In this document: positions 8,082-60,600 of the stretch, in pieces
Layout of the letters: each line of letters begins with the position of its first letter
How positions within the stretch are numbered: position 1 is the stretch's first letter
DNA from: an uncultured Actinomycetota bacterium
GTDB lineage: Bacteria; Actinomycetota; Thermoleophilia; RBG-16-64-13
Assembly (NCBI GenBank): GCA_963796315.1
Contig: CAWCLH010000019.1
Span: 256,676 to 320,675 of the forward strand
DNA: 64,000 nucleotides
Reading direction: 5' to 3'
Translations under genes and position numbers: made by a program
Notes under the pieces: generated by a model
The model's database searches: none
Seen by the model: only the letters and a program-made list of their open reading frames with translations
Told to the model about the DNA's origin: nothing

Positions 8082-9352
8082 ATGGGCGGACACGGAGAGG
8101 AGCACCCGGTCGCAGAGAAGCCCCGGCCCACGCTCGAAGAGCTCCACGCGCGCAAGGAGCGGACCCGCCAGCGCGTCTTGGGCGACCGGGAGACGATCAC
8201 CGTCAGCATGGGCCCGCAACACCCCTCGATGCACGGGGTCTTCCAGGCGGTGCTGGAGCTGGACGGTGAGATCGTCGTCAAGACCACCCCGTACATCGGC
8301 AATCTCCATCGCGGCGTCGAGAAGATGGCCGAGGACCTCACCTACCACCAGGTGATCCCGCTCACCGACCGCCTGGACTACATCTCGAGCTTCGCCATGA
8401 ACCACGCCTACTGCGAGGCCGTGGAGAAGCTGATGGGCGTCGAGGTCCCGCGGCGGGCCCGCTACATCCGGACCATCGGCGATGAGCTCTGCCGCCTCTC
8501 CAACCACCTGCTGTGGCTGGGCGTCCACATCATGGACTTCGGGGCGACCACCTTCTACGAGATCTGCTTCCGCGACCGGGAGTACATCCTGGACCTCTGG
8601 GAGATGCTCTGCGGCGCCCGGCTGACCCACTCCTACGCGCGCCTCGGCGGCGTGGCCAAGGACCTGCCCGACGGCTGGGTGGAGAAGTGCCGCACGGTCA
8701 TCGAGTTCCTGCCGCGGCGCCTGGCCGAGTACCAGCGCCTGATCGAGAAGAACCGCATCTTCCTCAAGCGGGCGGTCGGCATCGGCATCTTCCCGGCCGA
8801 CGAGTGCATACGCGTGGCGGATCACCGGTCCGGCCCTGCGCTCGGCGGGGGTGGCCCGGGATCTTCGCAAGGACGAGCCCTTCGCCGCCTACGACGAGAT
8901 CGACTTCGACGTGATCGTGGAGTACGACGCCGACGTCTACGCGCGGTACCTCGTGCGGATGAGGGAGATGTACGAGTCCTGCAAGATCGTCCTGCAGGCT
9001 CTGGACCAGCTGCCCGCCGGCGACTACATCGCGAAGGACGCGGCCCACGTCATCCCCCGCAAGGAGCACGTGCTGCGCGACGCCGCCGCCATGGTCCAGG
9101 ACTTCGTGCAGGTGTTCCGCGGACCGCAGGCGCCCCAGGGCGAGGTCTACAAGGCCATCGAGGTGCCCAAGGGCGAGATGGGCGTCTACATCGTGTCCGA
9201 CGGCGGTCCTAAGCCGCAGCGGATGCGGCTCGACCACCCCCACCTTCTACCATGCCCAGGCGGTCCCGGCCCTCTTCGAGGGCGAGATGATCGCCGACGT
9301 GGTCGGCATCTTCGGCAGTGTCGACATCGTACTGGGAGACAGCGACCGATGA
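8082..9352 (+). pseudogene. nuoD: NADH-quinone oxidoreductase subunit D; two +1 frameshifts as sequenced
   Basis: GPQHPSMHGVFQAVLELDGEIV and HRGVEK motifs. The frame must switch near 8809 (DECI|AWRITGPALRSAGVARDLRKDEP) and near 9235 (QRMRL|TPTFYHAQAVPALFEGEMIADVVGIFGSVDIVLGDSDR*). TGA 9350-9352 overlaps the nuoH ATG. Confidence 0.85.
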
Positions 9353-10353
9353 GCGACTTCATCTTCCTCGTCATCAAGGCCGTCCTGCTGGTCGCCTGCA
9401 TCGTCGGGATGGTGGTCTTCATCATCTACTTCGAGCGCAAGTTCGCCGGCTTCTTCCAGAGCCGGGTGGGCCCCACGTACGCCGGCCCCTACGGCGCCCT
9501 GCAGTCCTTCGGCGACATGGCGAAGCTCATCTCCAAGGAGGACCTGACGCCCGATCAACGCCGACAAGTGGGTGTTCAAGATAGCGCCCTACATCCTGTT
9601 CATCCCGGGCTTCATCTCGATGGCGCTCATCCCCTTCGGGCCGATGGGAGTCAACATCTTCGGCTACAAGGTCGACCTGGTGATGGCCAACTTCGACGCC
9701 GGGGTCATCCTCTTCCTGGCGCTGGGCTCCATCGCCGTGTACGGCATCGTCTTCGGGGGCTGGTCCTCCCGGAACCACTGGGCACTGCTGGGCGCGCTTG
9801 CGCTCCGGCGCTCAGATGATCTCCTACGAGATCTCCATGGGCCTCGCCCTGATCGGCGTCCTGATCATGGCCGGCACGCTGAACTTCGTCCAGATCGTCA
9901 ACCAGCAGGCGGGCAACTTCTGGGACTGGTACTTCATCCCGCAGATCGTCGGCTTCCTCATCTTCTTCGTGGCCAGCATCGCCGAGCTGAACCGGACGCC
10001 CTTCGACATCGCCGAGGGCGAGCAGGAACTGGTGGCCGGCTTCATGACCGAGTACACCGGCATGCGCTGGGGCCTCTACATGTTCGGCGAGTACATCAAC
10101 CTGGTGGTGATGTCCGCGATCATCTCCACCCTCTTCCTGGGGGGCTGGCGCGCCCCCTTCGACTTCCTCAACTTCATCCCCGGGTTCATCTGGCTGATCG
10201 GGAAGGTGATCTTCTTGATCTTCATGTACATGTGGATCCGGTGGACCCTGCCTCCGCTATCGGTACAACCAGCTGATGGACATCGGGTGGAAGATCTTCT
10301 TGCCGCTCGCCATCGCCAACCTGGCCGTCACGGCCATCCTGGTGGTGATCTGA
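9349..10353 (+). pseudogene. nuoH: NADH-quinone oxidoreductase subunit H; three +1 frameshifts as sequenced
   Basis: MSDFIFLVIKAV..FERKFAGFFQSRVGP, then SIAELNRTPFDIAEGEQELVAGFMTEYTGMRW. Frame switches near 9555, 9799 and 10253. The C-terminus [32 protein letters not shown] is recovered only after the third switch. Confidence 0.85.
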
Positions 10354-10356
10354 GTC

Positions 10357-10822
10357 ATGGGCCTCATGGACATCGTCAAGAAAGCGACCTTCTTCGAGAT
10401 CCTCCAGGGGATGTCGGTCACCGGGGGCTACTTCGTCGGTGAGAAGGTCACCGTGGAGTATCCCAAGGAGAAGATCGTGCCCTTTCCGCGGTACCGGGGC
10501 ATGCACGCCTTGATCTCCGATCCGGAGACGGCGGAGCTGAACTGCGACGCCTGCCATCTCTGCGCGACCATCTGCCCCTCCCATTGCATCCACATGGAGA
10601 GCTCCGAGGGCCCCGGACGGACGCAAGCAGCTGGACGAGTTCACCATCGACTTCGCCCGCTGCATCTTCTGCGGCTTCTGCGAGGAAGTCTGCCCTCGGG
10701 CCGCCATCGTCCTGACGCCGGTCTACGAGCTGGCCACGTACGACAAGGCGGACTTCACGTTGACGATGGACAAGCTCATCGCCAACGAGGTGAACGTCCA
10801 TAAAGAAGTCAAGAAGCGCTAG
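10357..10822 (+). pseudogene. nuoI: NADH-quinone oxidoreductase subunit I (2x[4Fe-4S]); one +1 frameshift
   Basis: [12 protein letters not shown] is in frame 1. The second cluster [12 protein letters not shown] is readable only after a switch near 10613. Stop TAG 10820-10822. Confidence 0.85.
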
Positions 10823-10831
10823 GGAGAAGGC

Positions 10832-11415
10832 ATGGTAGAGAAGATCCTCTTCATCGTGTTCGCCGCCCTGGCCGTCGGCGGGGGCCTGGCGACGATCACC
10901 CGGACGAACATGGTCCACGGGCTGATCGCCCTGGTCTTCACGTTCCTGAACATCGCCGCGATCTACCTGCTGACGCAGGCCTACTTCCTCGCGGTCGTCC
11001 AGATCCTGGTCTACGCGGGCGCGATCCTCGTCCTCTTCACCTTCGTCGTCATGTTCCTGGACCTGCCCCTCTACGCCGAGATGGAGCAGCTCCACCGACG
11101 GCAGCGCTGGCTGGCCCTGGTACTGGGGCCTCTCATGCTGGCCGAGCTGCGTCTACGTGCTGACCGGCCTCACCCTGCACTCCGTGGCCGGCGGGCTCTC
11201 GCCGGCGGCCATCGCCGCCGCCGGCGGCAACGTCGCGGATGTTGGGGCAGTCCCTCTTCCAGGACATGCTGCTGCCCTTCGAGGTCGCTTCCCTCATCCT
11301 CCTGGTCGCCATGGTGGGGGCCATCGTCCTGGCCAAGAAGGAAGACTCGATGATCGCGACTCGCGAGTGGGCCGTCGAGGAACCCGACCGCGAGCTCGTA
11401 GAGCAGGAGGTCTAG
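10832..11415 (+). pseudogene. nuoJ: NADH-quinone oxidoreductase subunit J; two +1 frameshifts
   Basis: VQILVYAGAILVLFTFVVM core. Switches near 11150 and 11243 restore GQSLFQDMLLPFEVASLILLVAMVGAIVLAKKE. Confidence 0.8.
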
Positions 11416-11416
11416 C

Positions 11417-11723
11417 GTGAACGCTCCCCATCGAGTGGTACCTGGTCCTCTCCGCCTTCCTCTTCGTCATCGGCGCGGTCGGGGTCATGACCCGGCGCAA
11501 CATGTTCATCGTGCTCTTCTCCATCGAGCTGATGATGAACGCCGTGAACATCAACCTGGTCGGCTTCAGCCGGTTCCACGAGAACCTCATCGGGCAGAAC
11601 TTCGTGCTCTTCACCATGACGGTGGCCGCCGCTGAGGCCGCGGTCGGCCTGGCGATCGTGACGTCGCTCTACCGGAACCGCGAAACGCTGATGGTCGATC
11701 TCTTCGACTCCATGAAGGGATAG
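11417..11723 (+). pseudogene. nuoK: NADH-quinone oxidoreductase subunit K; one +1 frameshift at codon 4
   Basis: GTG AAC GCT then an extra C in a C run near 11427. After it: PIEWYLVLSAFLFVIGAVGVMTRRNMFIVLFSIELMMNAVNINLV. Confidence 0.85.
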
Positions 11724-13640
11724 GTGGACATGAAGGAACTCATCTGGCTGATCCCGGCCCTGCCGCTGGCGGCCTTCCTCATCACCATCCTCTTGGGGAA
11801 GTGGTGGATCAAGGAGACGCGCACTGGCTGCCCATCCTGGCCATGGCCGGCATCGTTCGTGCTCTCGGTCGGGGCGTTCTTCAGAGCCCGGCAGCCGGAG
11901 CAGCCCTCGTGCTCAAGCTGTGGGATTGGATCGTCGTGGGCAGCTTCAACGTGCCCATCGCCCTCCAGCTCGACCAGCTCTCCGCCGTCATGCTCCTGGT
12001 GGTCACCGGCGTGGGACTCCTGATCTTCATCTACTCCAAGGGCTACATGCACGGCGACCCGGGCTACTACCGCTTCTACGCCTATCTCTGCCTCTTCGCC
12101 TTCAGCATGCTGATGCTGGTCCTGGGGGGCAACTACCTGCTGCTCTACTTCGGCTGGGAAGCGGTGGGCCTGTGCTCCTACTACCTGATCGGCTTCTACT
12201 ACCACAAGCAGTCGGCCGCGGCGGCCGGGAAGAAGGCCTTCCTGACCAACCGCGTGGGCGACTTCGGCTTCGGCCTGGGCATCATGCTCATCTTCACGAC
12301 CGTCGGCACGCTGAACTACACGGGAGTCTTCGAGAAGGTGGAGGCCGGCGGCATCGGCCAGGGCACCCTGACCGCGATCGCCCTGCTGCTCTTCATGGGG
12401 GCCATGGGCAAGTCGGCCCAGTTCCCGCTGCACGTCTGGCTGCCGGACGCCATGGAGGGCCCCACCCCCGTCTCCGCCCTCATCCATGCCGCCACCATGG
12501 TCACCGCCGGGGTCTACATGGTGGCCCGCAGCAACGTCATCTTCGCCAGCGCACCAGACGCCATGCTGGTGGTGGGCGGTCATCGGGGCCTTCACGGCCC
12601 TCTTCGCGGCCATCATCGGCATCGCGCAGAACGACATCAAACGGGTGCTGGCCTACTCCACCGTCTCCCAGCTGGGCTTCATGTTCATGGCCCTGGGGGT
12701 GGGCGCCTGGGCGGTGGCCATCTTCCACCTGGTGACGCACGCCTTCTTCAAGGCCCTGCTCTTCCTGGGGTCCGGCTCCGTGATCCACGCCCTGTCCGGC
12801 GAGCAGGACATGCGCATGATGGGAGGCGTTGGCGAAGAGGATCCCCTACACGTACTGGATACCTTCATGGCCGGCGTCCCTGGCTCTGGCGGGCATCTTC
12901 CCGTTCGCCGGCTTCTGGTCCAAGGACGAGATCCTGGGCATGCAACTTCGCGGGCGGCAAGTACGTCATCTGGGCCGTCGGCATCGTCGCCGCCTTCATC
13001 ACCGCCTTCTACACCTTCCGCATGATCTTCATGACCTTCTGGAACGAGTCGCGGATGGACCCCGAGGTGGAGCATCACGTGCACGAGAGCCCCTGGGTGA
13101 TGATCGGTGCCGCTCATCATCCTGGCCTTCTTCTCGCTGGTGCCGGCTTCGCGCTGGGCATCCCGGTGGACGGCGGCCCCATCCACACTTACCTGGAGCC
13201 GGTGTTCGCGCCGGGCAACGCGATCCTGGGGTTGGAGCACGAGGGCGCTACGGCGACGACCTACATCCTGATGCTGGTCTCGCTGGCGGTGGCCATGGCC
13301 GGGATCGCTCTGGCCTACGTCTTCTACGTGCCTCGCCGCAAGGAGCTCCCGCAGCGGGCGGGCGCGGCGGTGCCGGTGCTCTACCGGGCCGTGCTGCAAC
13401 AAGTGGTACATCGACGAGATCTATAACGCGACCATCATCCGCCTCGTGGTGGACGGTTCCCGTTGGGTCTGGCGGTCTGTCGACGCCGCCGTGATCGACG
13501 GGGCGGTAAACGGGGTGGCGAAGCTCTGGGAACTCGGCGGACGCGCGGTCAGACCGGCCCAGACGGGCAGGGTCCAGAACTACGCGGGCGTCATGTTCCT
13601 GGCGGTCTTCGTCATCGTGACCGCGGTGATCTTCTTCTAG
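11724..13640 (+). pseudogene. nuoL: NADH-quinone oxidoreductase subunit L; at least 8 frameshifts (insertions and some deletions)
   Basis: Conserved blocks are spread over three frames: [99 protein letters not shown]. The C-terminus NKWYIDEIYN..VIFF* ends at 13640. Confidence 0.85.
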
Positions 13641-44889: not shown

Positions 44890-46398
44890 TCAGATCCGGC
44901 CGTTACGCACATCTTCCTGTGCCTGCTGGTAGTCCTCGTGGCGCCCCACATCCAGCCAGTACTCGATGATGGGGAAACTGACGACCGTCCGCCCTTCCTC
45001 GAGCATCTTGTGGATCAGGTCGGTCATGTCGAAATGCTCGTCCTCCGGGATGAAGTCGCACGCCGTTGGCTCAAGTAGATACACCCCGGCATTGATGAGG
45101 AAGCTCAATGCGGGCTTCTCGTCGAGTGCGATGACCCTTGCGTCGTCGCATCGCACGACCCCGAAGGGAACCTTCACTTCGTACTTCCTCACTCCGACCG
45201 TGAGTTCCGCCCCGTGCTTTCGGTGATAGTGCAGCATCTCCTCGAATGAGACTCCGGTGAGCACGTCCCCGTTCAGCACCAGGAAAGGTCCGTCATCTCT
45301 GTCCCTCAGCTTCAGTCCGCCGGCAGTGCCGAGCGGCTGATCTTCCCTTGAGTAGGTCAGCCTGATCCCGAAGCCCTCCCCGTCGCCGAAGTGCTGGACG
45401 ATGTGGTCAGGCAGGTAGTGAGTGGTCAGGTTCACGTCCCGGATGCCGGAGCGGCGCAGTTGCTCGATGGTCCGTTCGAGCAGGGGGCGGTCTCCCACCG
45501 GCAGCATGGGCTTGGGAACGCTCTCGGTCAGCGGCAGCAGCCGCGTCCCGTATCCCCCAGCCATGATCACGGCGGAAATGCCCAGGTGGTTCTCCTGCAA
45601 GAGGTCTCGGCGTGGGAGGAACTGGACGAGCGTGCCCTCCTCATCCACGACCGGAAGGTGGTTGATGTCGCGCTGGGTCATGAGGTGGAGGGCATCGGCG
45701 GCGGATATCGAGCCTCGCGCGGTGATGGGATGAAGGTTGGCGATCGACTCGCAGGGATCGTCAAGAGAGGCCCCCCGAAGGATGGCCCGGCGGATGTCCC
45801 CATCGGTCAGCAGTCCCAGGAGTCTCCTGTCGGAAGAGCAGAGTGCCAGTGCCCCCGTCCCCGCCCTATCGAGGCGGGCCATCGCCTCCAGGATGGGCAG
45901 TTGGGGAGGGACGATGACCGCGTCCAAGAACTCGCTCACCCCCGCGACGAGATCCTTCTCCACGATGAGGTCCTTGCGCAGCAGCAGGGCCTGAAAGACG
46001 CCCTCCTCATCCACGACCGGAAGGTGGTTGATATCGCGCTGGGTCATGAGGTGGAGGGCATCGGCGGCGGATATCGAGCCTCGCGCGGTGATGGGATGAA
46101 GGTTGGCGATCGACTCGCAGGGATCGTCCAGAGAGGCCCCCCGAAGGATGGCCCGGCGGATGTCCCCATCGGTCAGCAGTCCCAGCAGCTTCCCGTCGGG
46201 GGCGCAGAGTGCCAGTGCTCCGGTCGCGACCTTGTCCAGGTGAGCCATGGCTTCGCCGATCGACGATCCCGGCGCGACGATGGCATCCTCCAAGGGTCGA
46301 CCGGGACTCATGGGCGGCACGTTGCGCTTCCGGCTTGCACGGCTGGCCCTCTGGCGGCGGAGCCGGTCATGTGATCCTCTTGGCCGGGGTGCCGACAT
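44890..46398 (-). CDS. Sugar-phosphate nucleotidyltransferase with four N-terminal CBS motifs (PtmE-like)
   Basis: Intact. Two CBS pairs, then AVIMAGGYGTRLLPLTESVPKPMLPVGDRPLLE, typical of the NTP-transferase fold. The start may be ATG 46311. Confidence 0.8.
   Translation of the reverse strand: MSAPRPRGSHDRLRRQRASRASRKRNVPPMSPGRPLEDAIVAPGSSIGEAMAHLDKVATGALALCAPDGKLLGLLTDGDIRRAILRGASLDDPCESIANLHPITARGSISAADALHLMTQRDINHLPVVDEEGVFQALLLRKDLIVEKDLVAGVSEFLDAVIVPPQLPILEAMARLDRAGTGALALCSSDRRLLGLLTDGDIRRAILRGASLDDPCESIANLHPITARGSISAADALHLMTQRDINHLPVVDEEGTLVQFLPRRDLLQENHLGISAVIMAGGYGTRLLPLTESVPKPMLPVGDRPLLERTIEQLRRSGIRDVNLTTHYLPDHIVQHFGDGEGFGIRLTYSREDQPLGTAGGLKLRDRDDGPFLVLNGDVLTGVSFEEMLHYHRKHGAELTVGVRKYEVKVPFGVVRCDDARVIALDEKPALSFLINAGVYLLEPTACDFIPEDEHFDMTDLIHKMLEEGRTVVSFPIIEYWLDVGRHEDYQQAQEDVRNGRI
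45634..46185 (-). repeat. Intragenic duplication: 186-bp cores 45634-45819 and 46000-46185 spaced exactly 366 bp (one CBS pair)
   Basis: I find only two mismatches between the cores (45667 G/A, 45764 A/C). The flanks of each unit are clearly more diverged. Confidence 0.85.
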
Positions 46399-48165: not shown

Positions 48166-49143
48166 CTATGTATTGCTGTACTCTGCGGCGTCCGGGTTGG
48201 TGACTATTCCCTCATGTACGACATCGTATATCTCTCTAATGCCCTGTGGCACTCGCTTGGTTATTGTGAACCCTAGTTCATCTCTTATCTTGGAGAAATC
48301 GACGCGATAATCACGAGGGTCCTCGTCCCTGTGGACGAAGCGGATCTTCGCAGCCGGGTCGAGCTTCCACAGTTCGTCCGCAAGCATCGACTTTCTGGTA
48401 GTTCTCTGCGGTGTCGCCCACGCCGAACACGTTCTGCCGCAGCTTCTCAGGCGCACCCTCCAGAGCGAAGATGCACGCGCGAGCCAAATCGTCCACATGG
48501 CAGTAGGGGCGCCAGAACTGCTCCCCGAAGATTTCGAGCTCGCGCCCCAGAGCGACTTCTCGGGCGAACTCGTTGACCGTGAGATCGAAGCGGATCCGAG
48601 GCGAGAGGCCGTAGACCGTGGAGAAGCGCAGGGCGGTGGGGACGAAGTCTTCCCGGATCTCGCTTTGGAGCAGGTAGCGTTCGAACTCCACCTTCAGCTC
48701 GGCATAGAGCGAGACGGGAGTGAGAGGCGAGTCTTCGTTGACGAAGCCGTCCCCCTCCATCTTGCCGTAGTTGCTGCAGGTGGACGCGAAGATGAAGCGC
48801 TTGACGTGGCTGGTCGCCGCGCAGAGGTCGAAGAGGCTGCGCGACGCCTCCCAGTTGATCTCTCGCGCCAGCTCTGGCTGCTTGCGCAGGCGGGATCGCC
48901 GACGATGGCGGCCAGGTGGACTACCGAGTCGACCTCCGCGAGCGCGGCCCCCAGGCGCTCCGCATCTCGCACATCGCCCTTCACGAACTCGAAACGGGGA
49001 TGATTGTAGACAGGGATCAGGGGTTCGCCACCAAAGCTCAGGTTGTCGTAGCCCCTGACGGAGTAGCCATTCTCGAGCAGCAAACGGACGAGCACGGATC
49101 CGATGTAGCCGGCGGCGCCCGTGACCAGCACTCTCGCGCTCAT
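48166..49143 (-). pseudogene. NAD-dependent nucleotide-sugar epimerase/dehydratase (LegB-like); two frameshifts
   Basis: MSARVLVTGAAGYIGS, ..STCSNYG.. and YAELKVEFERYL (YxxxK). Switches near 48880 and 48420. Confidence 0.8.
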
Positions 49144-49646
49144 GTTGATTTGCCTCTCATGATCATGTCCCGTCCATTCCGTCCCGTCCGGCACCGCAAT
49201 GTTTGCGATCTACTGACGCGCTTCGCGCTGAGGAGGCGCGTGGTCGATGACGAATCGGTGAGCACCACGCCTGCGACATGACGGTCGTCGATTTGAGTGC
49301 GATAGCCAACCCCCGCATGAATGACCCTACATGCCCTATCGGTCGTAACAAGGTGTTCATCAAGGGTAGCGCATGCGTCGCACCCGGGGGAGACCTCGTG
49401 GCAGAGCCGCCTCCGGAGGCCGGCCCGACATTCCGCAGGCACTCCCGATGCACTCATTTCAAGGGAAGCTGCCCAGTGCCGACACGCGATTGGGGCCCCT
49501 CTACCCATGGTTCCCGGAGTTCACGGTTCTGCCGCGGCCACCCCGCGCCCAGCTTACTGCACAGCCAAACGTGCGTTGCGGCCGGCGTTTCCGATAGGAT
49601 GGCTGCACCACAGCCACGTCTATGGTGTTCCAACGAGGAGAACAAG

Positions 49647-50666
49647 GTGATCGGCGAAGACCGAGCGTTCATCATTGCTGAGGCGGGAGTCAATCACAAT
49701 GGTTCGGTCGATGTCGCCAAGAGATTGATCGACGAGGCTCGACACGCTGGTGCGGACTGCATTAAGTTCCAAAGCTTCATCGCTGACAAGTTGGTGAGTC
49801 GTTCTGCCGAAAAGGCGCAGTACCAGAAGCAGACTACTGAGGGTCCAACTACCCAATACGAGATGCTCAAGCGTTTGGAGTTGAGCGAGGAGGATCACCG
49901 CACTTTACTCGCGCATTGCCGCGAAAACGGGATGATGTTCTTGTCGAGCGCATTTGATGAGGAAAGCGCCGATTTGCTCGAGGATCTTGGGGTGGTCGCC
50001 TACAAGATCCCTTCGGGAGAAGTGACCAATCATGGGTTCCTTCGATACCTTGCGCAGAAGGAAAAGCCCTTGATCCTCTCGACCGGGATGTCGACATTGG
50101 CTGAGGTCGCCGAGGCGATAGAAGTGATCATCGCGGCAGGCAACCAGCAACTGTACCTACTGCATTGCGTGACTGAATACCCGGCTCCGTTTGCCGAGAT
50201 CAACCTAAAGGCTATGCTCACATTGGAAAACGCTTTCGGTTTCCCCGTGGGCTATTCCGACCACACCGAGGGAATAGAGGTTGCCGTGGCGGCCGTGGCG
50301 CTCGGTGCCAGGATCATTGAGAAGCACTTCACTCTCAGCAGGGACATGGCGGGTCCCGATCACAAGGCGTCGCTCGAGCCGCACGAGTTGCGTGCCATGG
50401 TGGAGGCTATCCGGAACGTCGAGGACTCCCTGGGAAACGGCGTCAAGATGCCCGCCCCTTGCGAAATGAAGAACATGGCTGTCGCCCGTAAGAGCGTCGT
50501 GGCACGGCGGGACATCGCGAGCGGAGAACGCATCAGCCGAGAGAACGTGGCGATCAAGAGGCCGGGTCACGGCATTCAGCCCAAGGATATCGACAAGGTG
50601 ATGGGGTTGATGGTCACTACCGACGTCGCGGCCGACAGCGTCATTACGTGGGAAGATCTGAAATAG
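49647..50666 (+). CDS. neuB: N-acetylneuraminate-type (nonulosonic acid) synthase, NeuB/LegI family
   Basis: Intact. FIIAEAGVNHNGSVDVAKRLIDEA, AYKIPSGEVTNHGFL, GYSDHTEGIEVAVAAVALGARIIEKHFT and a C-terminal SAF-like domain. GTG 49647 follows GAGGAG; ATG 49599 is the alternative. Confidence 0.88.
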   Translation: MIGEDRAFIIAEAGVNHNGSVDVAKRLIDEARHAGADCIKFQSFIADKLVSRSAEKAQYQKQTTEGPTTQYEMLKRLELSEEDHRTLLAHCRENGMMFLSSAFDEESADLLEDLGVVAYKIPSGEVTNHGFLRYLAQKEKPLILSTGMSTLAEVAEAIEVIIAAGNQQLYLLHCVTEYPAPFAEINLKAMLTLENAFGFPVGYSDHTEGIEVAVAAVALGARIIEKHFTLSRDMAGPDHKASLEPHELRAMVEAIRNVEDSLGNGVKMPAPCEMKNMAVARKSVVARRDIASGERISRENVAIKRPGHGIQPKDIDKVMGLMVTTDVAADSVITWEDLK

Positions 50667-51857
50667 ACTCCAGACGTGTCTGTGTCGTAACCACCTCTCG
50701 CTCCGACTACGGGCTGCTCCGCTGGCTCATGCGGGCAATCCAAGAAGACGAGGAACTGAGACTGCAGGTGATCGCGACCGGGATGCATCTCTGTCCCGAA
50801 TTCGGGCTCACCTACCGAGATATCGAGGCGGACGGCTTTCAGATCGATCGGAAGATCGAGATGGTGCTTTCCGCTGATACCGACAGGGCAGTCACGAAGT
50901 CAATCGGGATAGGTCTACTGGCGTTTGCCGATGCTGTCGAGGATCTACGCCCTGACATTGTCGTCATCCTTGGGGACCGCTTCGAACTGCTCTCCGCGGC
51001 TATCGCGGCTCTGATTGCCAAGATACCTCTCGCGCATATCCACGGTGGGGAGACAAGCCAGGGCGCCATTGACGAGAGTGTAAGGCATGCCATAACGAAG
51101 ATGGCTTCGTTGCATTTCGCGGCAACAGAGGCGTACCGACAGAGAATCATCCAGATGGGCGAGGAGCCTCAGGCTGTCTTCGCATTCGGTGCTCCCGGTT
51201 TGGATGCATTGCGTCACATCACGCTCCTGACCAAAGAGGAACTTGAATCGCGTCTCGATTTCCGAATCCAGAGCCCGGCCGCCATTGTGACGTACCATCC
51301 GGTCACGCTCGAGAAAGACACTGCGGAGGCCCACATCAAGAGTCTCCTTAGCGCATTGCTGGAGGAGGGGATCCGGGCTGTCTTCACAAAAGCGAACGCA
51401 GATCCGCAGGGTCGATTGATCAACGATATCATTGCCGATTTCTGCCGGAATCGTCCTGATGACTATAGACTTTTTGACAATCTTGGCCAGCGAGTGTACT
51501 TAAGCTGTCTAAGCAATTTCGACATGATGATTGGGAATTCGTCCAGCGGTCTCATTGAAGCGCCCTCATTCAGGCTTCCAGTCGTCAACGTCGGTGACAG
51601 GCAGAAGGGGCAGAATCAGGGCGCTGAACGTCATAGATGTTGGTTGCTCCGTTTCGGAGATCTCGTCTGGTATCAGCAAGGCGTTCTCCAAATCTTGGAG
51701 GGAAGGATTAAAGGACGTCCAAAATCCATATTTGGGTTGTGCCGACGGTGATGTGAGTTTCTACATCAAGGAAGAGCTTAAAGGGATTGAACTTGGTGAA
51801 TCGCTCTTGAAGAAGGCTTTTCACGACATCCCCCGGAGCGGAGAGACCAGGATATGA
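50648..51857 (+). pseudogene. neuC: Hydrolysing nucleotide-sugar 2-epimerase, NeuC/LegG family; one +1 frameshift near 51610
   Basis: RVCVVTTSRSDYGLL, VVILGDRFELLSAAIAALIAKIPLAHIHGGETSQGAIDESVRHAITKM and GNSSSGLIEAPSFRLPVVNVGDRQKG, then the tail in the next frame. Confidence 0.85.
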
Positions 51858-52558
51858 TGGACGGCGAACGAGTCATTGCGGTGATTCCCGCGCGCGGGGG
51901 CAGCAAAGCCGTCCCACGCAAGAACATCGCGCCTCTCGGTGGAAAGCCGCTGATCGTCTGGTCGATTGAAGTCGCGCGGTCCGTCGATCTGATCGACCGT
52001 GTCGTTGTTTCCACCGACGATGAGGAGATCGCTGCCGTGGCGTCGCAACATGGTGCCGAGGTGTACCTCCGGCCGCCGCATCTGGCCACGGATGAGGCAC
52101 TCGTCATTGATGCGATACGGGACCTGATCCAGACGATGCGTGCCGAAGGAGAGGAAGCGCCTGTCATGGTTCTCCTGGAACCAACCTGTCCGTTTCGGTC
52201 CGTCGCTGACGTGGCGGCATGCCTGACCGAACTCGCGAAAGAAGGCATGGATTCGGTGGCGACTTTCAAGGAGGCGGACCTGAATCCTCACCGGGCCTGG
52301 GTCATCACGGACGGCAGACCGGCCCCGTTCATTCCTGGTGCGAACCCCTGGCAGCCTCGCCAGAAGCTCCCTCCGGCGCATCAACTCAACGGGGCTGTCT
52401 ATGCCTTTCGCGCTGACCGACTCCCCGATGATGGCGTGGCCCTGCTGTATGGTCGCAGCGGGGCTGTTCTCATGCCGCCGGAGCGGTCTATCGACGTGGA
52501 CACCGAGTTCGATTTCGCCGTCGCAGAGACACTGCTGAGATATGGAGGATCTAGATGA
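51854..52558 (+). CDS. neuA: CMP-nonulosonic acid synthetase (acylneuraminate cytidylyltransferase, NeuA/LegF family)
   Basis: Intact 234 aa. [27 protein letters not shown] and LLEPTCPFR. Confidence 0.88.
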
Positions 52559-53355
52559 CTGTCACGCTGAAGGATCTCTTCTCGCTGGAAGGTCGTACCG
52601 CTCTAGTGACCGGCGGGGCTGGGTTTCTTGGATCCGCCATGTGTGAAGCCCTCGCCGAGCTCGGCGCAAGTGTTGCCATCGCGAGCCGCGACGAGCAGAA
52701 ATGCAGGAATGCAGCGGCAGCCATCCAGGAGGAGTTTGGCGGCAGCAGTCGCGCGATCGGGCTGCCGCTGGACCTTCTCGAACCCCAGTCGATCACTGCT
52801 TGCGTCGAAGCGGTGGAGCGGGAATTCGGCCGGCTGGACATCCTCATCAACAATGCATGGTCGGGGAACAAGAACACGTGGGAGAGCATCTCCGAGAAGG
52901 ACTGGCTCTACGACATCGACATGAGTCTCAACTCGCCCTTTAGGATGATCAAGGCTGCCTTCTCGATGCTGAAGGAGCAGCGTGGGGTGATTTTGAACAT
53001 CGGGTCGATGTACGGTCACGTAGCGCCTGACTATCGGATCTACGATGGGAAGGAATTTGCCAATCCGCCTAGCTATGGTGCGGCCAAGGCCGGCGTGATC
53101 CAATTCACCAAGTATCTCTCGAGCTTCCTGTCGCCGTATGGCATACGTGTGAACGCTCTTAGTCCCGGCGCCTTCCCCCATCCACCGACCAGAGAGCACA
53201 AGGTGTTCTTGGACAAACTCTCCGCCAAGAACCCCCTCGGTCGGGTCGGTGACCCGCCGGACCTCAAGGGTGCGGTTGCGCTGCTGTGCAGCGACGCCGG
53301 CGCCTACATCACCGGCCAGAACATCTGTGTCGACGGTGGGTGGGCAGTGTGGTAA
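52555..53355 (+). CDS. Short-chain dehydrogenase/reductase (SDR)
   Basis: Intact 266 aa. [22 protein letters not shown] .. YGAAKAG. Confidence 0.85.
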
Positions 53356-54275
53356 CGAAAGTCGGAATCTTAGGCCTGAGTCCAGGAAACGGACATCCGT
53401 TCTCTTTCTCGGCCATCATCAACGGCTTCGATGATGAAGGTATGGCCCGGTCAGGGTGGCCGGGCATCCATGACTACCTGAAGCGTCGCGACGCCTCCGA
53501 ATTCGGCATCGACGGCCTGCAGGTCACCCATGCGTGGACTCAGGACGAAGACACGACACGCACTCTGTGCTCGGCCTGCCGTATTCCCTCCGCTGTTGGT
53601 CGGCGGGAGGAGATGCTTGGAAACGTCGACGCCGTTATCATTGCGCGTGACGACCACGAGACCCACCTTGAGATGGCACGACCGTTCCTGGAGGCCGGGT
53701 TACCCGTCCTGGTCGACAAGCCCCTTGCCTTGGACGCCAGTGCCCTCGGCTTCTTCAGAAGCTATCTTGGAGGAGGGCAAGCTCATGTCCTGCTCTGGAA
53801 TGAGGTACGCGAAGGAGTTGGACGACGTGCGTGCATCCCTGGCGGCAATCGGCCCGCCGTTGTTGGTGCGGGGAGCGATAGTCCTCTCGTGGGAGAAATA
53901 CGGTATCCATCTCATAGATGCCGTATTTGGCGTTACGGGGGCACGCCCAGTCTCGGTCGTCGCTCTCGATACCGCGCACAGTTCGATGGGAATCGCCATG
54001 GACGACGGTTCTCTTCTCCAAATCGATGCTCTCGGCGAGGCGCCTCCGACGTTTCGGTTGGATTTCTGGGCGGCCACGCGCTCATGGACGCTGCGAGATC
54101 ACCGACAACTTCTCCATGTTCCGACGAATGCTGTGGCATTTCGCCGAGATGATGCGGAACCGGACGGCCGGAGGTGCCCGTTCAGGACACTCTGGACGCC
54201 ATGCGGCTACTCATCGCGGGCAACCTTGCGAAGAAGACGGGAAAGAAGGTGCTGCTCAGTGACATCGCACTATAG
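53349..54275 (+). pseudogene. Gfo/Idh/MocA-like oxidoreductase; three +1 frameshifts
   Basis: GTG overlaps the SDR stop. KVGILGLSPGNGHPFSFSAIING .. AVIIARDDHETHLEMARPFLEAGLPVLVDKPLA. Switches near 53765, 54085 and 54170. The end ..KKVLLSDIAL* stops at 54273-54275. Confidence 0.65.
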
Positions 54276-55083
54276 GGACCTCTTCTCTCTTCGCGGGAAG
54301 ATGGCGATCGTCACGGGAGGCCTTGGGATTCTCGGCCGCGGGTTCTGTCGCGGACTGGCCGAATTCGGAGCGGACATCGCCGTCGTCGACCTCGACGGCG
54401 AGGCCTGCGCGCGCTTTGCTCAGGAACTCACGGACAGCGTGGAGTCCGGGCTGCAGGCGTCGGGTGCGACGTCGCCGATCCTGATTCGGTCGAGGCGATG
54501 GTTCGCCGTACGGTGGAACTTCTAGGCGGAGTGCATGTCCTCCACAACAACGCGGCTTCGAAATCGGCGAATCTCGACGCCTTCTTTGCGCCCTTCGAAG
54601 AGTATTCGCCTGGACGAGTGGCGGAAGGTGATGGCCGTTAACATCGACGGCATGTTCCTTGTCGCCAAAGCGGTGGGACGGCAGATGATCAGACAGAGGA
54701 CCGGCGGAAGCATCATCCAGACGGCGTCGATCTACGGCATCCGCGGTTCGGACAAGAGGATCTATGAAGGTTCTTTCTATCTGGACCGGCAGATAAGCAA
54801 TCCGGCCGTCTACTCCACCTCGAAGGCCGCGGTCGTGGGGTTGACCAAGTACCTCGCTGCCTACTGGGCAGACCAGGGGATACGGGTCAACACGCTGGTG
54901 CCGGCGGGCGTCGAGAGCGGGCAGAACGAGACCTTCAAAGCGCGGTATGCGGCGCGGGTCCCGATGGGCAGGATGGCCCGAGCGGACGAGATGGTCGGCG
55001 CCCTAATCTACCTGGCCTCGGATGCGTCCAGCTACGTGACGGGCCAGAATCTCGTCGTCGATGGCGGGTTAAGCGCTTGGTAG
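54259..55083 (+). pseudogene. Short-chain dehydrogenase/reductase (SDR); two compensating frameshifts (about 54430 and 54605)
   Basis: KMAIVTGGLGILG, LHNNAA (shifted frame), ASIYG .. YSTSKAAVVGLTKYLA, YVTGQNLVVDGGLSAW*. Confidence 0.8.
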
Positions 55084-55102
55084 TAGGACGACAGCGCGCC
55101 TT

Positions 55103-56114
55103 GTGAGTCTCTACGTGAATCGCCGCGTCACGATCGTCATGTACCATTTCGTGCGTGAGCTGAAGCGCAGCCGATTCCCCGACATCAAAGGACTCTCAAT
55201 CGAGGAGTTCCGCGGCCAGATAGAGTACATCCGCCGGCACTACAGCGTTGTCGGCGTGCCGGACCTGCTTGCCGCGCTCGGGTCCCCGACCGATCCCTGC
55301 CGCCGCGCGCGCTCCTGTTGACCTTTGATGACGGCTACCGCGATCATTTCGACACTGTCCTGCCCATTCTGGTGGAGAACGGCCTCACTGGATGCTTCTT
55401 CCCGCCGGCAAAGGCAGTGACTGAACACGAGGTACTCGACGTCAACAAGATCCACTTCATCCTTGCCGCCGTTCCGGACAAGGACGCGTATCCTCGACTC
55501 ACTCTTCGCCTTGGTCGATGCCGCCAGGGGGGAGTACTCCCTACGGAATCGCGACGACTATATTGAGCAGCTCGCGCATCCCAACCGTTTCGACACGGCC
55601 GAGGTGATCCTCATCAAGCGGCTGCTGCAGCGGGAACTGCCGGAGACCCTGCGAAAGAGGATCACCGGTGAGCTCTTCCGGCGGTTTGTCACCGAGGATG
55701 AAGCCGCCTTTTCGCAGGAGCTGTACATGGACACGGCCGAGCTGCGCGTGATGAGAGAAGCAGGGATGCATATCGGTAGTCACGGCTTCGATCACTACTG
55801 GCTTGATTCGCTGGATGAGCAGGCTCAGATGCGCGAGATAGATCTATCGCTGCGCTTTCTCCGTGCGAGTGGGATACGACACCGAGAACTGGGTCATCGG
55901 CTATCCCTACGGCGCCTACAACGATTCGCTCCTGCGCATCCTCAGGCAAAGAGGCTGCAGAGCCGGTTTCACCACCGAGGTTCGTGTCGCCGACATCGAT
56001 CACGACGACCCGTTGACGCTGCCGCGGCTCGACACGAACGATCTGCCCAAGCGGGCGGATGCGGCGCCTAACGCGTGGACGATGCGGCGTGTCACAGGGG
56101 AGGTTGCCACGTGA
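55103..56114 (+). pseudogene. Polysaccharide deacetylase-family protein; at least 3 frameshifts
   Basis: VTIVMYHFV .. LLTFDDGYRDHFDTVLPIL .. MHIGSHGFDHYWL .. VIGYPYGAYN, read over three frames. Confidence 0.7.
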
Positions 56115-57406
56115 CTGTGATGATGAGGATCCTCGAGGACCTCACCCCGCTGAATCGGACCATGTGCTCGACGTGACTACGACCGGGCCGTGGAGTACAT
56201 GCGAGCAGCTGCTGCCGTTCGAGGTCTTGTCGTACTCCTCCGCGTCGGAGGAGCACAACGGCTGGGTCATCCCGCCCAGGTGGGATGTGTCGGAGGCCAG
56301 CATCACCAAGGATGGCCGACTCGTCTACGACGGTACGTGGCATCCGCTGGGCGTCATCGCCCTCTCGGCCCCCTTCGAGGGCACGGTGTCCCGAGAGGTG
56401 CTTGAGGGACCACCTGCACTATGACCATCGCTACAGCGACTCGCTGACTTATCATTTCCGGCAGCAGTTCCGCACGTGGGATCGAGAATGGGGTTTCTGC
56501 GTTCCCAAGGACGTCTACGACGCGTTGGAACCCGGTGACTACAACGTCCGCATCGTGACGGACGAAGCGCCCGGCGTGTTGAAGGTCCTCGTGGGCACGC
56601 ACACGGGCTCACTGCCGTATTCCATCGCCCTGTGTGCGAATCTCGATCATCCCGGTGTGGCCAACGATGGGCTTGGCCGGGGTGGCTGTGGGGGTGGAGG
56701 TCTTTCGGCGGCTGCAGGACAGGGCGACGAAGTACACCTACAAGTTGGTGCTCGCGCCCGGCATCCTCGGCACGGAGTACTACCTCGGCAAGCTTGCGCC
56801 GGAGGAACGAGGGAGCATCCTCGAATGCCTTTGCCTGTGGATGTTGGGCTCGCGCACGGAACTCGCCCTCCAGGAGTCGCGCGGCGTCCCGCTCGAACAT
56901 CGAGCACGCCATGGCCGCCGTCATGGACGCCCAGGCGATACCGTATCGCCGAGGCGAGTTCGAGAGCATCATCATCAACGACGAGTACCTCTGGGAGGCC
57001 TACGGCATCCCCACGAGCTCGCTGTCCCGATTCCCGTACCCGGAGTATCACTCTTCGCGTGACGACATCTCGATCATGAGCGAGGAACACCTCGAGGAGG
57101 CCGTCGCCATTGTCCTCGGGGCGATCGAAGAACTCGAGGCTACCGCCACTGGTGGAGAAGCGGTTTGAGGGCACTATTTGCCTGTCCAATCCACGCTACG
57201 GTCTGTACGTGGATCCCGGCCAGATCTCCTTCGGCGAGGGAGTCAGCGAAGAGCAGCGCCGACTCCGCATGTTGCAGGACTACCTGCCGACACTGCGGCT
57301 TCCGGTAACTATCCGGAATCTCGCATCGCGATTCGAACTGTCGGAAGCAGATGTCTTGGACTATCTACGGAAGTGGGACGAGAAAGGCCTTGTCACGATT
57401 TGGTAG
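56111..57406 (+). pseudogene. Aminopeptidase-like domain protein with a C-terminal winged helix (COG4310 / DUF2172-DUF4910 type); at least 6 frameshifts
   Basis: GTG overlaps the deacetylase stop (GTGA). The reconstructed protein reads MMRILEDLTPLNRTMCS .. NGWVIPPRWDV .. LCANLDHPGVANDGL .. YTYKLVLAPGILGTEYYL .. RFPYPEYHSSRDD .. LASRFELSEADVLDYLRKWDEKGLVTIW*. Confidence 0.55.
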
Positions 57407-57668
57407 TAGTTGGATTCAGTTCTTTCCCACTGGTGCTAGCTGGGCGCGTCCGACGTTCACTGACTAGTCGAGGCCGATGTCAAAACTCTGGCTAGGCGAC
57501 TTGGGGAGTCGCACTTGCTGCAGTGAGCAACCCGGACTGACGCCAGTATTAAATCATATAGTATGCACACGCAAGGCTGTGTATATGTTGTCTCGTTTGT
57601 CGTTCTTCTAATTCAATAAGGATGCGTAGTCCGTCTCTTAGCCTAGGTGCTGAGATCGGCGTATCCGA

Positions 57669-60226
57669 TTGCATGCGGCAGATGAAGAGAGTAGCCTCGG
57701 TAAGACGCCTCACGCAAGGACCGAACCGCACGGAAGTGCGCCGGTCGTGGCCTGCTCGATGGGGCTTGGTGGGCGCACCGACTCAGCGGCTTCGCGACAG
57801 AGAGGCAGGTCCTTGTCCCGACTCGTTCGCTCGCTGAGGGCAGAACTCAGGTGGGTTGCGGCGCTCGCCCTGGCGCCGTGGATTGCCGTAGCACTCGCGA
57901 CCGGCGGCCCAGTCGTCGCGGTCCACCTGCTGGTTTCGCTTGCCGTCCTCGGCGGGCTGGGCGTGATTGCCCTGCGCCTTGGAATGGCCGAACGGCGCGG
58001 GGAGGCACTCGTCCTGCTCGCCATCCCAGTTGGATTCGTCTTCGCGGCCGCGCTCCTCGCGCTCTCAGCACGGCTCTCTCTTTCGCTTCGAGTCACCGGC
58101 TGGGGCTTGGCGGTCATCGGCTTGGCGGGACTCCTCCTCGTGCAACGGGAATGGCGGGGCTTGGCTCGCGAGAGCCTTCGGTACGGGATTGCCTATGTTG
58201 TGTTGTCCGCCGTGATTTGCGGTGTGTACTTCGCGCCGGGCGCATTGCAGGACGGAGTCACGACCTCAGAGGGTGCATTCCAATGGATGTATGTCGATAC
58301 GCAGAACCACATGGCGGTCGCTTCGGCTGTGAAGACGGACCACGGTCAGCCGAAGATGCCCGGATTGGCGACCGCCCCGCTCACCTATCACTTCGCACCG
58401 TTCGCGGCGGCGGGTGCGCTGTCGACAATGACAGGCTTGCCGATTCCGGATGCGCTCGCGCGGGTCGTACGGGGTATCGGTCTACTGGCGCTTCTACTGG
58501 CTGCACTCGGGTGCGGTCGTGTCCTGGGGAGGCGCCTCGGGGGTGCCGCCTTGGGGGGTATTGCCTCGGTGGTCGGACTGTTCTTCTACGGGTCGCTCTC
58601 CGCCCTCTTCGTGCCTCAAGCTAATTCGTCGTCCGCGGCCGGCCTTCCGGCATTACTCTTCTCGGTGCCGGGCCTCGCCGTCGTTCACGACGCCGGGTGG
58701 TTCTCTCACCTCGTTCTGGGGCATTCCGAGCTGTGGGGGGGATCGGCATTTTCGTTACGCTCGCGCTCGTCGCCGATCGTCTGACGTCTGTCGAGCATGC
58801 CCGGCTTCCCATCGACCTACTGATCGTCCTGCCGGCGCTCGTTGCGTGTCTCAACGTGATCGCTGGCATCGGCATCGTGGGGGTCGTGGTCGCGGTCTAC
58901 GCGCTTCTGGGTCTTCGCCACAAGCGTGCCCTGATCGCTTCGGTCGGCACTCTTTTGGCCGCCATTCTCGTTGCATGGATCATGGGCTACGTCGGTAGCG
59001 CCTCCGCGTCGGGGGTCGCGTTCGACCTTGGGTATTCTGCGAAGGCGCTTACGCTCTGGAAATGGCTGTTTGTCGGCTTGGGCGTTCGGATAGTGGCGGC
59101 GGCTTGGCTGCGCCGCTGGCGAGCAGACCCAGTCGCGTGGGTCCTGATCGCATTCGTGGTGGGCTACCTCGCGATGGGCTTCCTACTGCGTGACGACTTC
59201 GACGAACACAATCTCTACGCACTGAAGTTCCTGCAGGGGATTCTGAGCGTGTTCGCATTCGCTTGGCTGGGTGCCATTTGGGCGAGAGCGAAACCCCACT
59301 GGAGTGAGACCGCCGCGCGCGAGTTGCTGTGGTGGTCTTGGCGGCTCGGTGGGCTTCTGTTGATGGCCGATGTCGCTGCCGTGGGTCTAACGGCGATTCG
59401 TGGCGACGCGACGCCTAGATCGCTGCTGTTGGCGACGGTTGGCGCCCTGGCGGTCACGCTGGCGGCCGCCGCCCTACTAGCCTGGCGGCGGCGTGCGCCG
59501 ACCGGGTGGCGGTCGGCATCGGCTGCCGTGCTCATTGTGGTGGCCGTTGGTTTAGCAGCGTGGCTACCCTCATGGATGGGATACGGTCTCAACCGCCTGC
59601 ACGTGGAGGTCACTCTGTCTTCCGACGAGGTAGCAGCGCTTCGGTGGGTGCGCAACACATCCGGTCCGGACGCGCTCATAGCGACCAATCATCACGCCAT
59701 CGAACAGTTTCGAGTCCGCCCGGACCGTTCATACGGATACCGCGTGATCGCAGAGCGCCCGGTGCTGTTGGAAGGCTGGGAGTACGGGGAGAAACTCGCG
59801 CCATCGTTTGCCACAGTTCGCCGTGACAACGACGTGCTATTCCACGCGACAGACCCCGACTCGGCCCGCGCGGTGGTCCAACGATACGGCATTCAATTCA
59901 TTGTCATGGCCCCAAAGACCGACTTGCACATCACGGCAGCGCCCTGGTTGCGGCTCGCCGCGCAGTTCGGATCGGTGAAGGTGTACCGAACCAACGCGGC
60001 TCGTGTCGGGGAATCTGACCAGGGAGGTCCCCGCACCACGCGCTGCGTCCTTTATCCATCCCCAGATTCGGTCCCGTCACATAGCCGATGCGTCCGACGC
60101 CAGATGGACCATGGCACCAACCAGTCGTCAGCCGTCGCCATCCGCCCCATCGGGACCCGCGCCGCATACTCTTGCTCGAAGTCTTCGTTCCGGCGGCTCT
60201 CGACGTCGGCGAGTACAAGTGTGTAG
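57669..60226 (+). pseudogene. Large polytopic membrane protein with a C-terminal soluble domain (GT-C-like glycosyltransferase/polymerase candidate); one frameshift near 58740; 3' end uncertain
   Basis: About 15 hydrophobic segments across ORFs 57669-58784 and 58697-60226, joined at HLVLGHSELWGG|IGIFVTLALV. Soluble tail ..RWVRNTSGPDALIATNHH..VLLEGWEYGEK..QFIVMAPK. Beyond about 60010 the frame runs antisense through an SDR remnant. Confidence 0.5.
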
Positions 60227-60600
60227 GTCCGGATACCCCTGTCTGCCACTCCCGGCCCTTGCGAGCATAGCCGAGCGCGGCACCTCGAGGAGGCTGCACG
60301 CGACATTCAGACGGCGCGGGGCAGGTGTTTCCTCCTCTCCTGTGTGAGGTCATCGGATCAAAGGGCGCCCCTTCTAGGCCTCCTTGAGGATGTCGATGTC
60401 CAAGAGCAGATTCGCCCATCTTCTGCTTGTGGCGCTTGGGCTGTTCGCCCTCAGGGGCTTCTTCACCCTTGGCATCGAGCGCAGCCCGCCTACTTTGCCG
60501 TCCAACGTTGGACGTTCTCCGGGATCTCTTCCGACACCATAACCACCTCCTCCCGTGATGCAATCACGGCTTATGGGTAGCTCCAACGGGGAGGGGAGCA
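60010..60600 (-). pseudogene. Decayed SDR paralogue (inverted relative to 54259-55083)
   Basis: Minus-strand fragments ITGGGGYGVG .. DIDILKEA .. GGN..PRGAALGYA .. GIRTYTLV..EQEYAARVPMGRMATADD .. YVTGPNLGMDKGRSAW. A 23-nt identity TATGCGGCGCGGGTCCCGATGGG is shared with 54945-54967. An internal deletion and frameshifts are present. Confidence 0.55.

Follow-up and report, generated by a model that had tools for sequence, protein, structure and literature searches.

A probable legionaminic-acid tailoring cassette downstream of neuA in an uncultured Thermoleophilia bacterium

Introduction

Nonulosonic acids shape the recognition of bacterial surfaces by phages, hosts and antibodies, yet the making of their variants is poorly understood. 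A 64,000-nucleotide stretch of DNA from an uncultured actinobacterium of the class Thermoleophilia (assembly GCA_963796315.1, contig CAWCLH010000019.1, positions 256,676 to 320,675 of the forward strand; hereafter the window) contains five consecutive plus-strand genes lying 3' of neuA, the gene for a CMP-nonulosonate synthetase. Four of the five appear broken in the raw sequence. The locus thus raises the question of whether this block is a working set of tailoring enzymes or a relic. The reading that we favour is that the block is probably the 3' half of a cassette, functional and spread by horizontal transfer, for a derivative of legionaminic acid (Leg), its apparent decay being an artefact of assembly. 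Cytoplasmic redox and N-acyl tailoring of Leg is the activity that best fits the cassette.

The families of the five genes, two short-chain dehydrogenases/reductases (SDR1 and SDR2), a Gfo/Idh/MocA-type oxidoreductase (Gfo), a deacetylase and an aminopeptidase-like protein, were named in the initial annotation of the window and are confirmed by Pfam. The genes of the locus are as follows.

44890..46398, minus strand: PtmE-like protein, CBS plus sugar-phosphate nucleotidyltransferase (context); Pfam NTP_transferase, E 4e-48, and three CBS stretches
49647..50666, plus strand: neuB, legI-type nonulosonate synthase (context); Pfam NeuB, E 9e-103, and SAF; intact
50648..51857, plus strand: neuC, legG-type hydrolysing 2-epimerase (context); Pfam Epimerase_2, E 9e-79; one frame break near 51605
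51854..52558, plus strand: neuA, legF-type CMP-nonulosonate synthetase, first gene of sub-module A; Pfam CTP_transf_3, E 2e-25; intact
52555..53355, plus strand: SDR1, 266 amino acids; Pfam adh_short_C2, E 3e-50; intact
53349..54275, plus strand: Gfo/Idh/MocA-family oxidoreductase, 307 amino acids when read through; Pfam GFO_IDH_MocA; three one-nucleotide insertions
54259..55083, plus strand: SDR2, 274 amino acids when read through; Pfam adh_short_C2; one deletion and one insertion, mutually compensating
55103..56114, plus strand: CE4/NodB-type deacetylase, 336 amino acids when read through, first gene of sub-module B; Pfam Polysacc_deac_1; three frame breaks
56111..57406, plus strand: DUF2172/DUF4910 M28-like protein, 429 amino acids when read through; Pfam DUF2172 and DUF4910/Peptidase_M28; six one-nucleotide insertions
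57407..57668: AT-rich spacer of ~260 nucleotides, read directly from the sequence, which ends the operon

The genes are arranged as in an operon coupled to neuA, as had been proposed. Overlapping junctions can be read from the sequence at 52555 (ATGA), 53349 (GTGGTAA) and 56111 (GTGA). A further GTGA overlap claimed at 54259 is the product of reading a frameshifted piece; the true stop of the Gfo gene is TAG at 54273-54275, giving a 17-nucleotide overlap with SDR2 that is likewise present in intact relatives. Nor is the deacetylase fused to its neighbours, as the initial annotation had it: it is a separate gene, beginning after a 19-nucleotide spacer that follows the SDR2 stop.

Conservation of the cassette

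The order neuB-neuC-ptmE-neuA-SDR-Gfo-SDR-deacetylase-DUF4910 recurs, whole or for the most part, in at least 15 other loci. It is kept in full in G004, a genome of the same family, and in L027, L029, L031-L033, L035, L037, L038 and L108/L109, and is near-complete in L036. Four more loci (L028, L030, L034 and L110) have the cassette interrupted by other genes between SDR2 and the deacetylase. The carriers comprise G004, an uncultured Thermoleophilia metagenome-assembled genome (MAG; L027), seven Acidobacteriaceae/Terriglobia MAGs, a Steroidobacter MAG, a Gemmatimonadales MAG and further metagenome contigs, along with two cultured isolates of the Halomonadaceae, Modicisalibacter coralii 362.1 and Aidingimonas lacisalsi XHU 5135, both of which have the whole cassette. 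A PglD-like acetyltransferase gene often precedes it, and often LegB- and LegC-like genes, a gene for a protein of ~500 amino acids and a GT4 gene then follow. The initial annotation had allowed for the block's being absent from, or unlinked to, the core genes in relatives; wherever the block occurs, it is intact and linked to neuB, neuC and neuA.

The block was originally regarded as one unit. Because the insertions in L028, L030, L034 and L110 fall between SDR2 and the deacetylase, while the quartet neuA-SDR-Gfo-SDR and the pair deacetylase-DUF4910 each remain together, it is better described as parts of two separable sub-modules, A (neuA, SDR1, Gfo, SDR2) and B (deacetylase, DUF4910). Both are built from families that have partial precedents.

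The distribution of the cassette is sporadic: a DUF4910 gene of any kind is found in only four of 41 relatives, and the full cassette in G004 only. The G+C content of the right-hand operon (window 49000-57500) is 0.54-0.62, compared with 0.68 for the genome, marking it as a low-G+C island. Taken together, sporadic distribution and low G+C content point to horizontal spread of the cassette.

The PtmE-like gene has a different setting in the window. In relatives it lies between neuC and neuA and encodes a protein of ~358-379 amino acids with one weak CBS match; in the window it is on the opposite strand, outside this interval, and encodes 502 amino acids with three or more CBS stretches. The two are 31-35% identical.

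Several other genes accompany the cassette. After the AT-rich spacer comes a gene with an upstream region of its own, whose product is a large polytopic membrane protein (window 57669-60226, plus strand). Proteins of this kind (~760-780 amino acids, no Pfam match) travel with the cassette, for instance in L028, L030 and L034, and in some Acidobacteriaceae loci the gene occurs twice, directly after SDR2 and again after DUF4910. The insertions between SDR2 and the deacetylase in L028 and L030 (at ~1.4-9 kb of these loci) and in L110 (11871-17912) carry acyltransferase_3, GT2, GtrA-like, amine-oxidase-like and wecB-like genes, and L110 also has a B12-radical-SAM gene and another acyltransferase_3 gene between neuB and neuC. 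The inserted genes of L028, L030 and L110 may further decorate the same sugar or glycan. In several genomes the cassette is flanked by polysaccharide pyruvyl-transferase genes (L008 11061-12380; L032 13659-14981; L108 2032-3429), recalling the link between DUF4910 loci and pyruvyltransferases described in 2014.

Sub-module A: the oxidoreductases downstream of neuA

All proteins of the window cassette but one are closest to the Thermoleophilia versions (69-84% identity to L027, 67-77% to G004). Against these two cassettes, NeuB is 71-76%, Gfo 69-74% and SDR2 77-84% identical. SDR1 is the exception. It is only 35-36% identical to the SDR at the same position in G004 and L027, and 62-70% identical to the same-position SDR of Acidobacteriaceae, Halomonadaceae and Gemmatimonadales. 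The position after neuA is thus occupied by one of two non-orthologous types, a 247-residue adh_short protein (G004 and L027) or a 266-residue adh_short_C2 protein. Both SDRs of the window have the classical motifs, TGGAGFLG (the TGxxxGxG cofactor motif) and YGAAK (the catalytic YxxxK) in SDR1, and TGGLGILG and YSTSK in SDR2. A search of phage proteins with SDR1 returned only generic SDRs at ~33% identity.

An exchange of this kind has been described in Acinetobacter baumannii, where the aciABCD/aciAECD and elaABC genes, and the phage epaAB genes, convert Leg or pseudaminic acid (Pse) into C7 or C8 epimers. Replacement of AciB (246 residues, adh_short) by AciE (265 residues, adh_short_C2) in an otherwise identical module changes the product from acinetaminic acid to its C8 epimer (PMC5595891). 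Similarly, EpaB, an adh_short_C2 protein, makes 8-epi-pseudaminic acid (8ePse) together with a cytidylyltransferase-reductase (PMC12053666). The Acinetobacter modules resemble the present cassette in placing extra oxidoreductase genes beside the Leg (lga) module and a cytidylyltransferase gene, and in the one-gene adh_short/adh_short_C2 swap (PMC5595891). The parallel between the 247- and 266-residue alternatives and AciB/AciE is suggestive, the likeness to the Aci, Ela and Epa proteins (JN107991, MF362178, ASR24079.1, SBS22545.1) being one of Pfam type, length and gene position only. Other Acinetobacter literature yielded no domain assignments for AciA, AciC or AciD. In contrast to the cassette, the Acinetobacter modules lack deacetylase and DUF4910 genes, have been reported only from Acinetobacter and give di-N-acetyl sugars.

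The initial annotation had also compared the SDRs with PtmA of Campylobacter. In that GDP-linked pathway and its Plesiomonas, Vibrio and Escherichia coli Elg/Wei counterparts, an SDR (PtmA), an oxidoreductase (PtmF) and a CBS-nucleotidyltransferase (PtmE) are clustered with legF, legI and legG (PMC4481668). One alternative is that SDR1, Gfo and perhaps SDR2 are PtmA/PtmF-like precursor-supply enzymes, leading from fructose-6-phosphate to GDP-GlcNAc, and that only the deacetylase and the DUF4910 protein modify the sugar. The gene content of classical Leg loci, with one SDR and one oxidoreductase of ~326 amino acids beside legF and ptmE (PMC4481668), is compatible with this, as is the membership of a PtmE-like gene in the cassette. 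A gammaproteobacterial locus in which a distant Gfo homologue (32% identity) occurs with an SDR, NeuA and an aldo-keto reductase, adjoining NeuB, also fits. Furthermore, both SDRs match model NF006619, although below threshold (147 and 163 bits, cut-off 255), and the PtmA-like SDR of a Halorussus locus passes that model.

On balance, however, a precursor-supply role is unlikely. The PtmA equivalog NF050062 (cut-off 350 bits) is not among the best 25 NCBIfam families of either SDR1 or the SDR2 orthologue, which places its score below ~127-130 bits, so that neither protein qualifies as PtmA. A PtmA-like SDR is encoded separately from the neuA-SDR-Gfo trio in the Halorussus locus, and this, with the sub-threshold scores, argues against SDR1 being PtmA. 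Unlike the Ptm pathway, the cassette has two SDRs, and the first is swapped between non-orthologous types, as would be expected more of a step that sets stereochemistry than of a housekeeping one. Finally, a search of 400 Gammaproteobacteria for Gfo found only two genomes with a distant homologue besides the carrier G041.

The motifs of Gfo itself are less clear-cut. The protein matches Pfam GFO_IDH_MocA (E 4e-8) and has DKP, the family motif being EKP; its glycine motif, GLSPGNG, is atypical beside the N-terminal Rossmann GxGxxG; its PDB relatives are marginal (E ~0.007), and a search found 2513 homologues. No NCBIfam model was found for it, nor for the deacetylase or DUF4910 proteins, and its likeness to PtmF (Cj1330-type; cf. 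WeiH, VF_0146) is positional only. In the gammaproteobacterial locus (L114; G272:C1:147000-165755, positions 9052-12285) the aldo-keto reductase, Gfo, SDR and NeuA genes stand in a row near NeuB, a domain set that matches EpaA (cytidylyltransferase plus aldo-keto reductase) and EpaB (SDR) of the Acinetobacter phage.

Sub-module B: the deacetylase and the DUF4910 protein

The deacetylase is 69-76% identical to its counterparts in G004 and L027. Polysacc_deac_1 is matched in two stretches, with an insert of ~110 amino acids between the halves of the catalytic domain. The CE4/NodB motifs are present, TFDDG at residue 74 and HGFDH (His-x3-His) near residue 227 of the read-through product. Its PDB matches are NodB domains and the N-domain of PgaB, the latter being closest.

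Deacetylases within Leg loci are associated with non-acetyl N-acyl forms, as in the cluster of Ca. Kuenenia stuttgartiensis (SugarBase preprint). A deacetylase also lies among the Leg genes of a plasmid from the archaeon Halorussus caseinilyticus (NZ_CP119810), whose neuA-SDR-Gfo proteins are 57%, 44% and 48% identical to those of the window. Both of these loci have formyltransferases for re-acylation and no DUF4910 gene, whereas the cassette has DUF4910 and no formyltransferase. The Halorussus locus (L107, positions 342366-361337) contains neuA-SDR-Gfo, two formyltransferase-family genes, CE4 and PIG-L deacetylase genes, neuB and neuC, and is probably an N-formyl legionaminic-acid type pathway.

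The last protein of the block belongs to the family of Cj1295 from Campylobacter jejuni NCTC 11168 and CA_C2195 from Clostridium acetobutylicum (PIRSF015244 / COG4310; DUF2172, DUF4910 and HTH_47). DUF2172 and DUF4910 are matched by Pfam both in the window pieces and in the intact orthologue, as the family architecture demands. The orthologue matches CA_C2195 of known structure (PDB 3k9t) with a phmmer E of 7e-20, and its His/Asp/His zinc ligands align. In the window these lie in the motifs DHPGVAND and YHSSRD, corresponding to H189, D195 and H324 of CA_C2195, and they are invariant in 46 homologues (H175, D181 and H308 of P0001). An AlphaFold (AF2) model of the G004 orthologue (pLDDT 91) superimposes on 3k9t at full length (Foldseek E 2.7e-31, TM 0.76). 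The alignment spans 429 columns and includes the C-terminal domain of three helices and a strand. The model of the G004 orthologue, and it alone, lends support to the putative C-terminal winged helix of the initial annotation; neither the window protein nor the intact orthologue matches HTH_47 or any other Pfam HTH family at threshold.

The same annotation held that COG4310 proteins have no assigned role in any glycan pathway, but one had already been given. C. jejuni needs Cj1295, a member of PIRSF015244 described as ‘aminopeptidase-like’, to make Pse5(2,3-di-O-methylglyceroyl)7Ac; this protein has been proposed to cleave the N5 acetamido group, and the phenotype is seen also in the CMP-sugar (PMC3068675). 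The crystal structure of CA_C2195 revealed a single-zinc M28-like site that lacks the catalytic Asp and Glu of the peptidases, and from gene neighbourhoods, which include a NeuB-type synthase, Das et al. predicted in 2014 a role in modified-sugar biosynthesis through acylation or deacylation of an amino sugar (PMC4000134). The protein described here shares this architecture: an alpha+beta domain is inserted into the M28-like domain, and the model of the orthologue adds a helical domain at the C-terminus. Like them, it is a single-zinc, predicted cytoplasmic protein of a nonulosonic-acid locus (PMC4000134; PMC3068675). There are also differences. The protein is only ~20% identical to CA_C2195, and it is paired with a CE4 deacetylase in a legionaminic locus, Cj1295 being found in a pseudaminic, flagellar one. 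The ACP (acyl carrier protein), HAD, methyltransferase and ATP-grasp neighbours of the Campylobacter and Clostridium loci are missing here.

How closely DUF4910 genes are tied to neuB was scored in the best 80 DUF4910 loci, with cassette genes counted as far as the fetched flanks reach. All 12 loci at 50% identity or above carry cassette genes. In loci at 47% or below the Gfo and deacetylase genes are missing, although NeuB remains within 10 kb in ~20 of these. Overall, NeuB lies within ~10 kb in 29 of the 80. DUF4910 was found in 26 of 401 sampled genomes of the same phylum, and NeuB is adjacent in four of 28 carriers (these 26 with G002 and G004). A universal tie between DUF4910 and NeuB was therefore rejected, the tight link being limited to the subgroup at least 50% identical. 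The association of COG4310 with neuB, which the initial annotation had put forward for examination, is strong for this subgroup and only partial across the family. Close homologues of the DUF4910 protein also occur in Oryzomonas rubra and Petrachloros mirabilis (61% and 69% identity, respectively).

None of the products of the block has a signal peptide or a transmembrane segment. For this reason the predicted site of action of the deacetylase and the DUF4910 protein is the cytoplasm, and their predicted target is the sugar, as such or nucleotide-linked, and not an exported polymer. The partial NeuB linkage of the DUF4910 family leaves room for a different view, in which the two proteins modify a finished glycan or glycoprotein, or the DUF4910 protein, through its C-terminal winged helix-turn-helix-like domain, regulates the locus. 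CE4 enzymes usually de-N-acetylate polymers, in keeping with the closeness to PgaB, and the M28 relatives are peptidases. This is nevertheless improbable, as proteins confined to the cytoplasm would not reach an exported polymer, the M28 catalytic residues are absent from CA_C2195, and in the Cj1295 phenotype it is the sugar itself that changes. Moreover, the deacetylase-DUF4910 pair stays within sugar-synthesis operons.

Assembly errors and apparent decay

In the raw sequence SDR1 alone of the five genes is open, the other four needing ~14 frame changes. To locate these, intact orthologues from G004 (locus L008) were aligned to the window DNA with frame changes allowed. The inferred positions are listed below.

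Gfo: near 53766, 54091 and 54158
SDR2: near 54440 and 54609
Deacetylase: near 55287, 55489 and 55868
DUF4910 protein: near 56174, 56202, 56407, 56669, 56886 and 57148

The block contains 12 one-base insertions and two one-base deletions; the frame break in neuC is one more single-nucleotide insertion. The 1.5 kb spanning neuA and SDR1 is free of indels. Once the frames are corrected, the four split genes yield full-length products of 307, 274, 336 and 429 amino acids, equal in length to their orthologues and 67-84% identical to the two closest cassettes. Not one in-frame stop interrupts the ~1,350 codons of the four, and every catalytic motif is retained. Two further ‘frameshifts’, at 53348 and 55117, proved to be artefacts of over-long N-termini in the guide open reading frames.

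Damage of this kind is found throughout the genome. Frame switches occur in 34 of 73 orthologue-like genes, and a set of 40 well-conserved genes (44.7 kb) contains 38 indels, including 32 one-nucleotide insertions, with 18 of the 40 genes broken and a single in-frame stop. The broken genes include some that are 79-84% identical to relatives. The assembly consists of 21 contigs and has an estimated completeness of only 78%. Because the same insertion-biased indels occur genome-wide and the read-through products are full length and free of stops, the apparent decay is attributed to assembly errors; judged from sequence, it has the signature of an insertion-prone long-read assembly. Homopolymer errors were considered as the cause of the insertions and rejected, the mean longest run being 2.08 at the inferred sites and 2.19 in controls.

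A decayed, inverted piece resembling the C-terminal third of SDR2 (53-63% identity over two short pieces) lies at window 60036-60246 on the minus strand, directly adjoining the 3' end of the gene for the large membrane protein; in contrast to the assembly indels, it looks like the relic of a real rearrangement. That the block as a whole has truly decayed, with the indels present in the organism and the tailoring genes reduced to pseudogenes, is very improbable: this nearby rearrangement and an indel density about three times that of the genome (2.9 against 0.85 per kb) speak for it, but the same insertion bias affects 45% of conserved genes, the completeness is low for so few contigs, and stops are absent while the catalytic motifs are all kept. 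Irreversible decay, which the initial annotation had named as a refuting outcome, is accordingly not what the sequence records. In practical terms, apparent pseudogenes in this genome are not to be trusted.

Proposed function

In the scheme outlined here, the substrates, the order of the steps and the final sugar are those that we infer. Upstream, a Leg-type nonulosonate would be made by the products of neuB, neuC, the PtmE-like gene and, from the minus strand, LegB-, LegC- and LegH-like genes. Sub-module A would then activate it as the CMP-sugar and may change its stereochemistry or oxidation state through keto intermediates, the logic being that proposed for the aci, ela and epa genes of Acinetobacter, with the SDR immediately after neuA as a swappable reductase that sets the outcome. 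Sub-module B, the CE4 deacetylase and the Cj1295-like zinc protein, would remove an N-acetyl group, most likely at N5. This nitrogen derives from the acetamido group of GlcNAc, and after deacetylation it would be left free or given another acyl group. Epimer formation or N-acyl exchange, both suggested initially, are plausible and have precedent in the literature.

A number of points weigh against this tailoring scheme. The cassette has no characterised member, and no sugar structure has been described for any of its carriers. For the SDR and oxidoreductase linked to neuA in C. jejuni (PtmA and PtmF), the assigned role is precursor supply and not tailoring. An obvious acyl-donor gene is missing from the cassette, which encodes no ACP, ATP-grasp, formyltransferase or FkbH-like protein, and the Aci analogy has the restricted basis described above. 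In addition, the scheme does not account for the threefold excess of indels in the block, though densities of 3-4 per kb are reached in other genes.

A more specific proposal is offered tentatively, as a possibility that is some way from being probable. The nine-gene cassette may make an undescribed Leg-derived sugar that is altered at C7 or C8 (or C4) and has a free or non-acetyl N5. The CE4 and DUF4910 proteins might act as a two-enzyme N-acyl exchange system, and the SDR after neuA might toggle stereochemistry in the manner of AciB and AciE.

Significance

The cassette is probably a set of legionaminic-acid tailoring genes, common to soil and salt-loving bacteria of several phyla, that remodels a sialic-acid-like sugar. 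It joins three families whose chemistry is unsettled, namely the neuA-linked SDR/Gfo pairs, a cytoplasmic CE4 deacetylase and the Cj1295/DUF4910 protein. Since some of its carriers are cultured, the biochemical role of the DUF4910 protein is now directly testable, sixteen years after the phenotype of Cj1295 was reported. If the specific proposal is correct, the sugar would be displayed by uncultured soil Acidobacteriaceae, Thermoleophilia and Gemmatimonadales as well as by cultured Halomonadaceae, and, through the pairing of CE4 and DUF4910 proteins, the biochemistry of the Cj1295 family would be defined for the first time.

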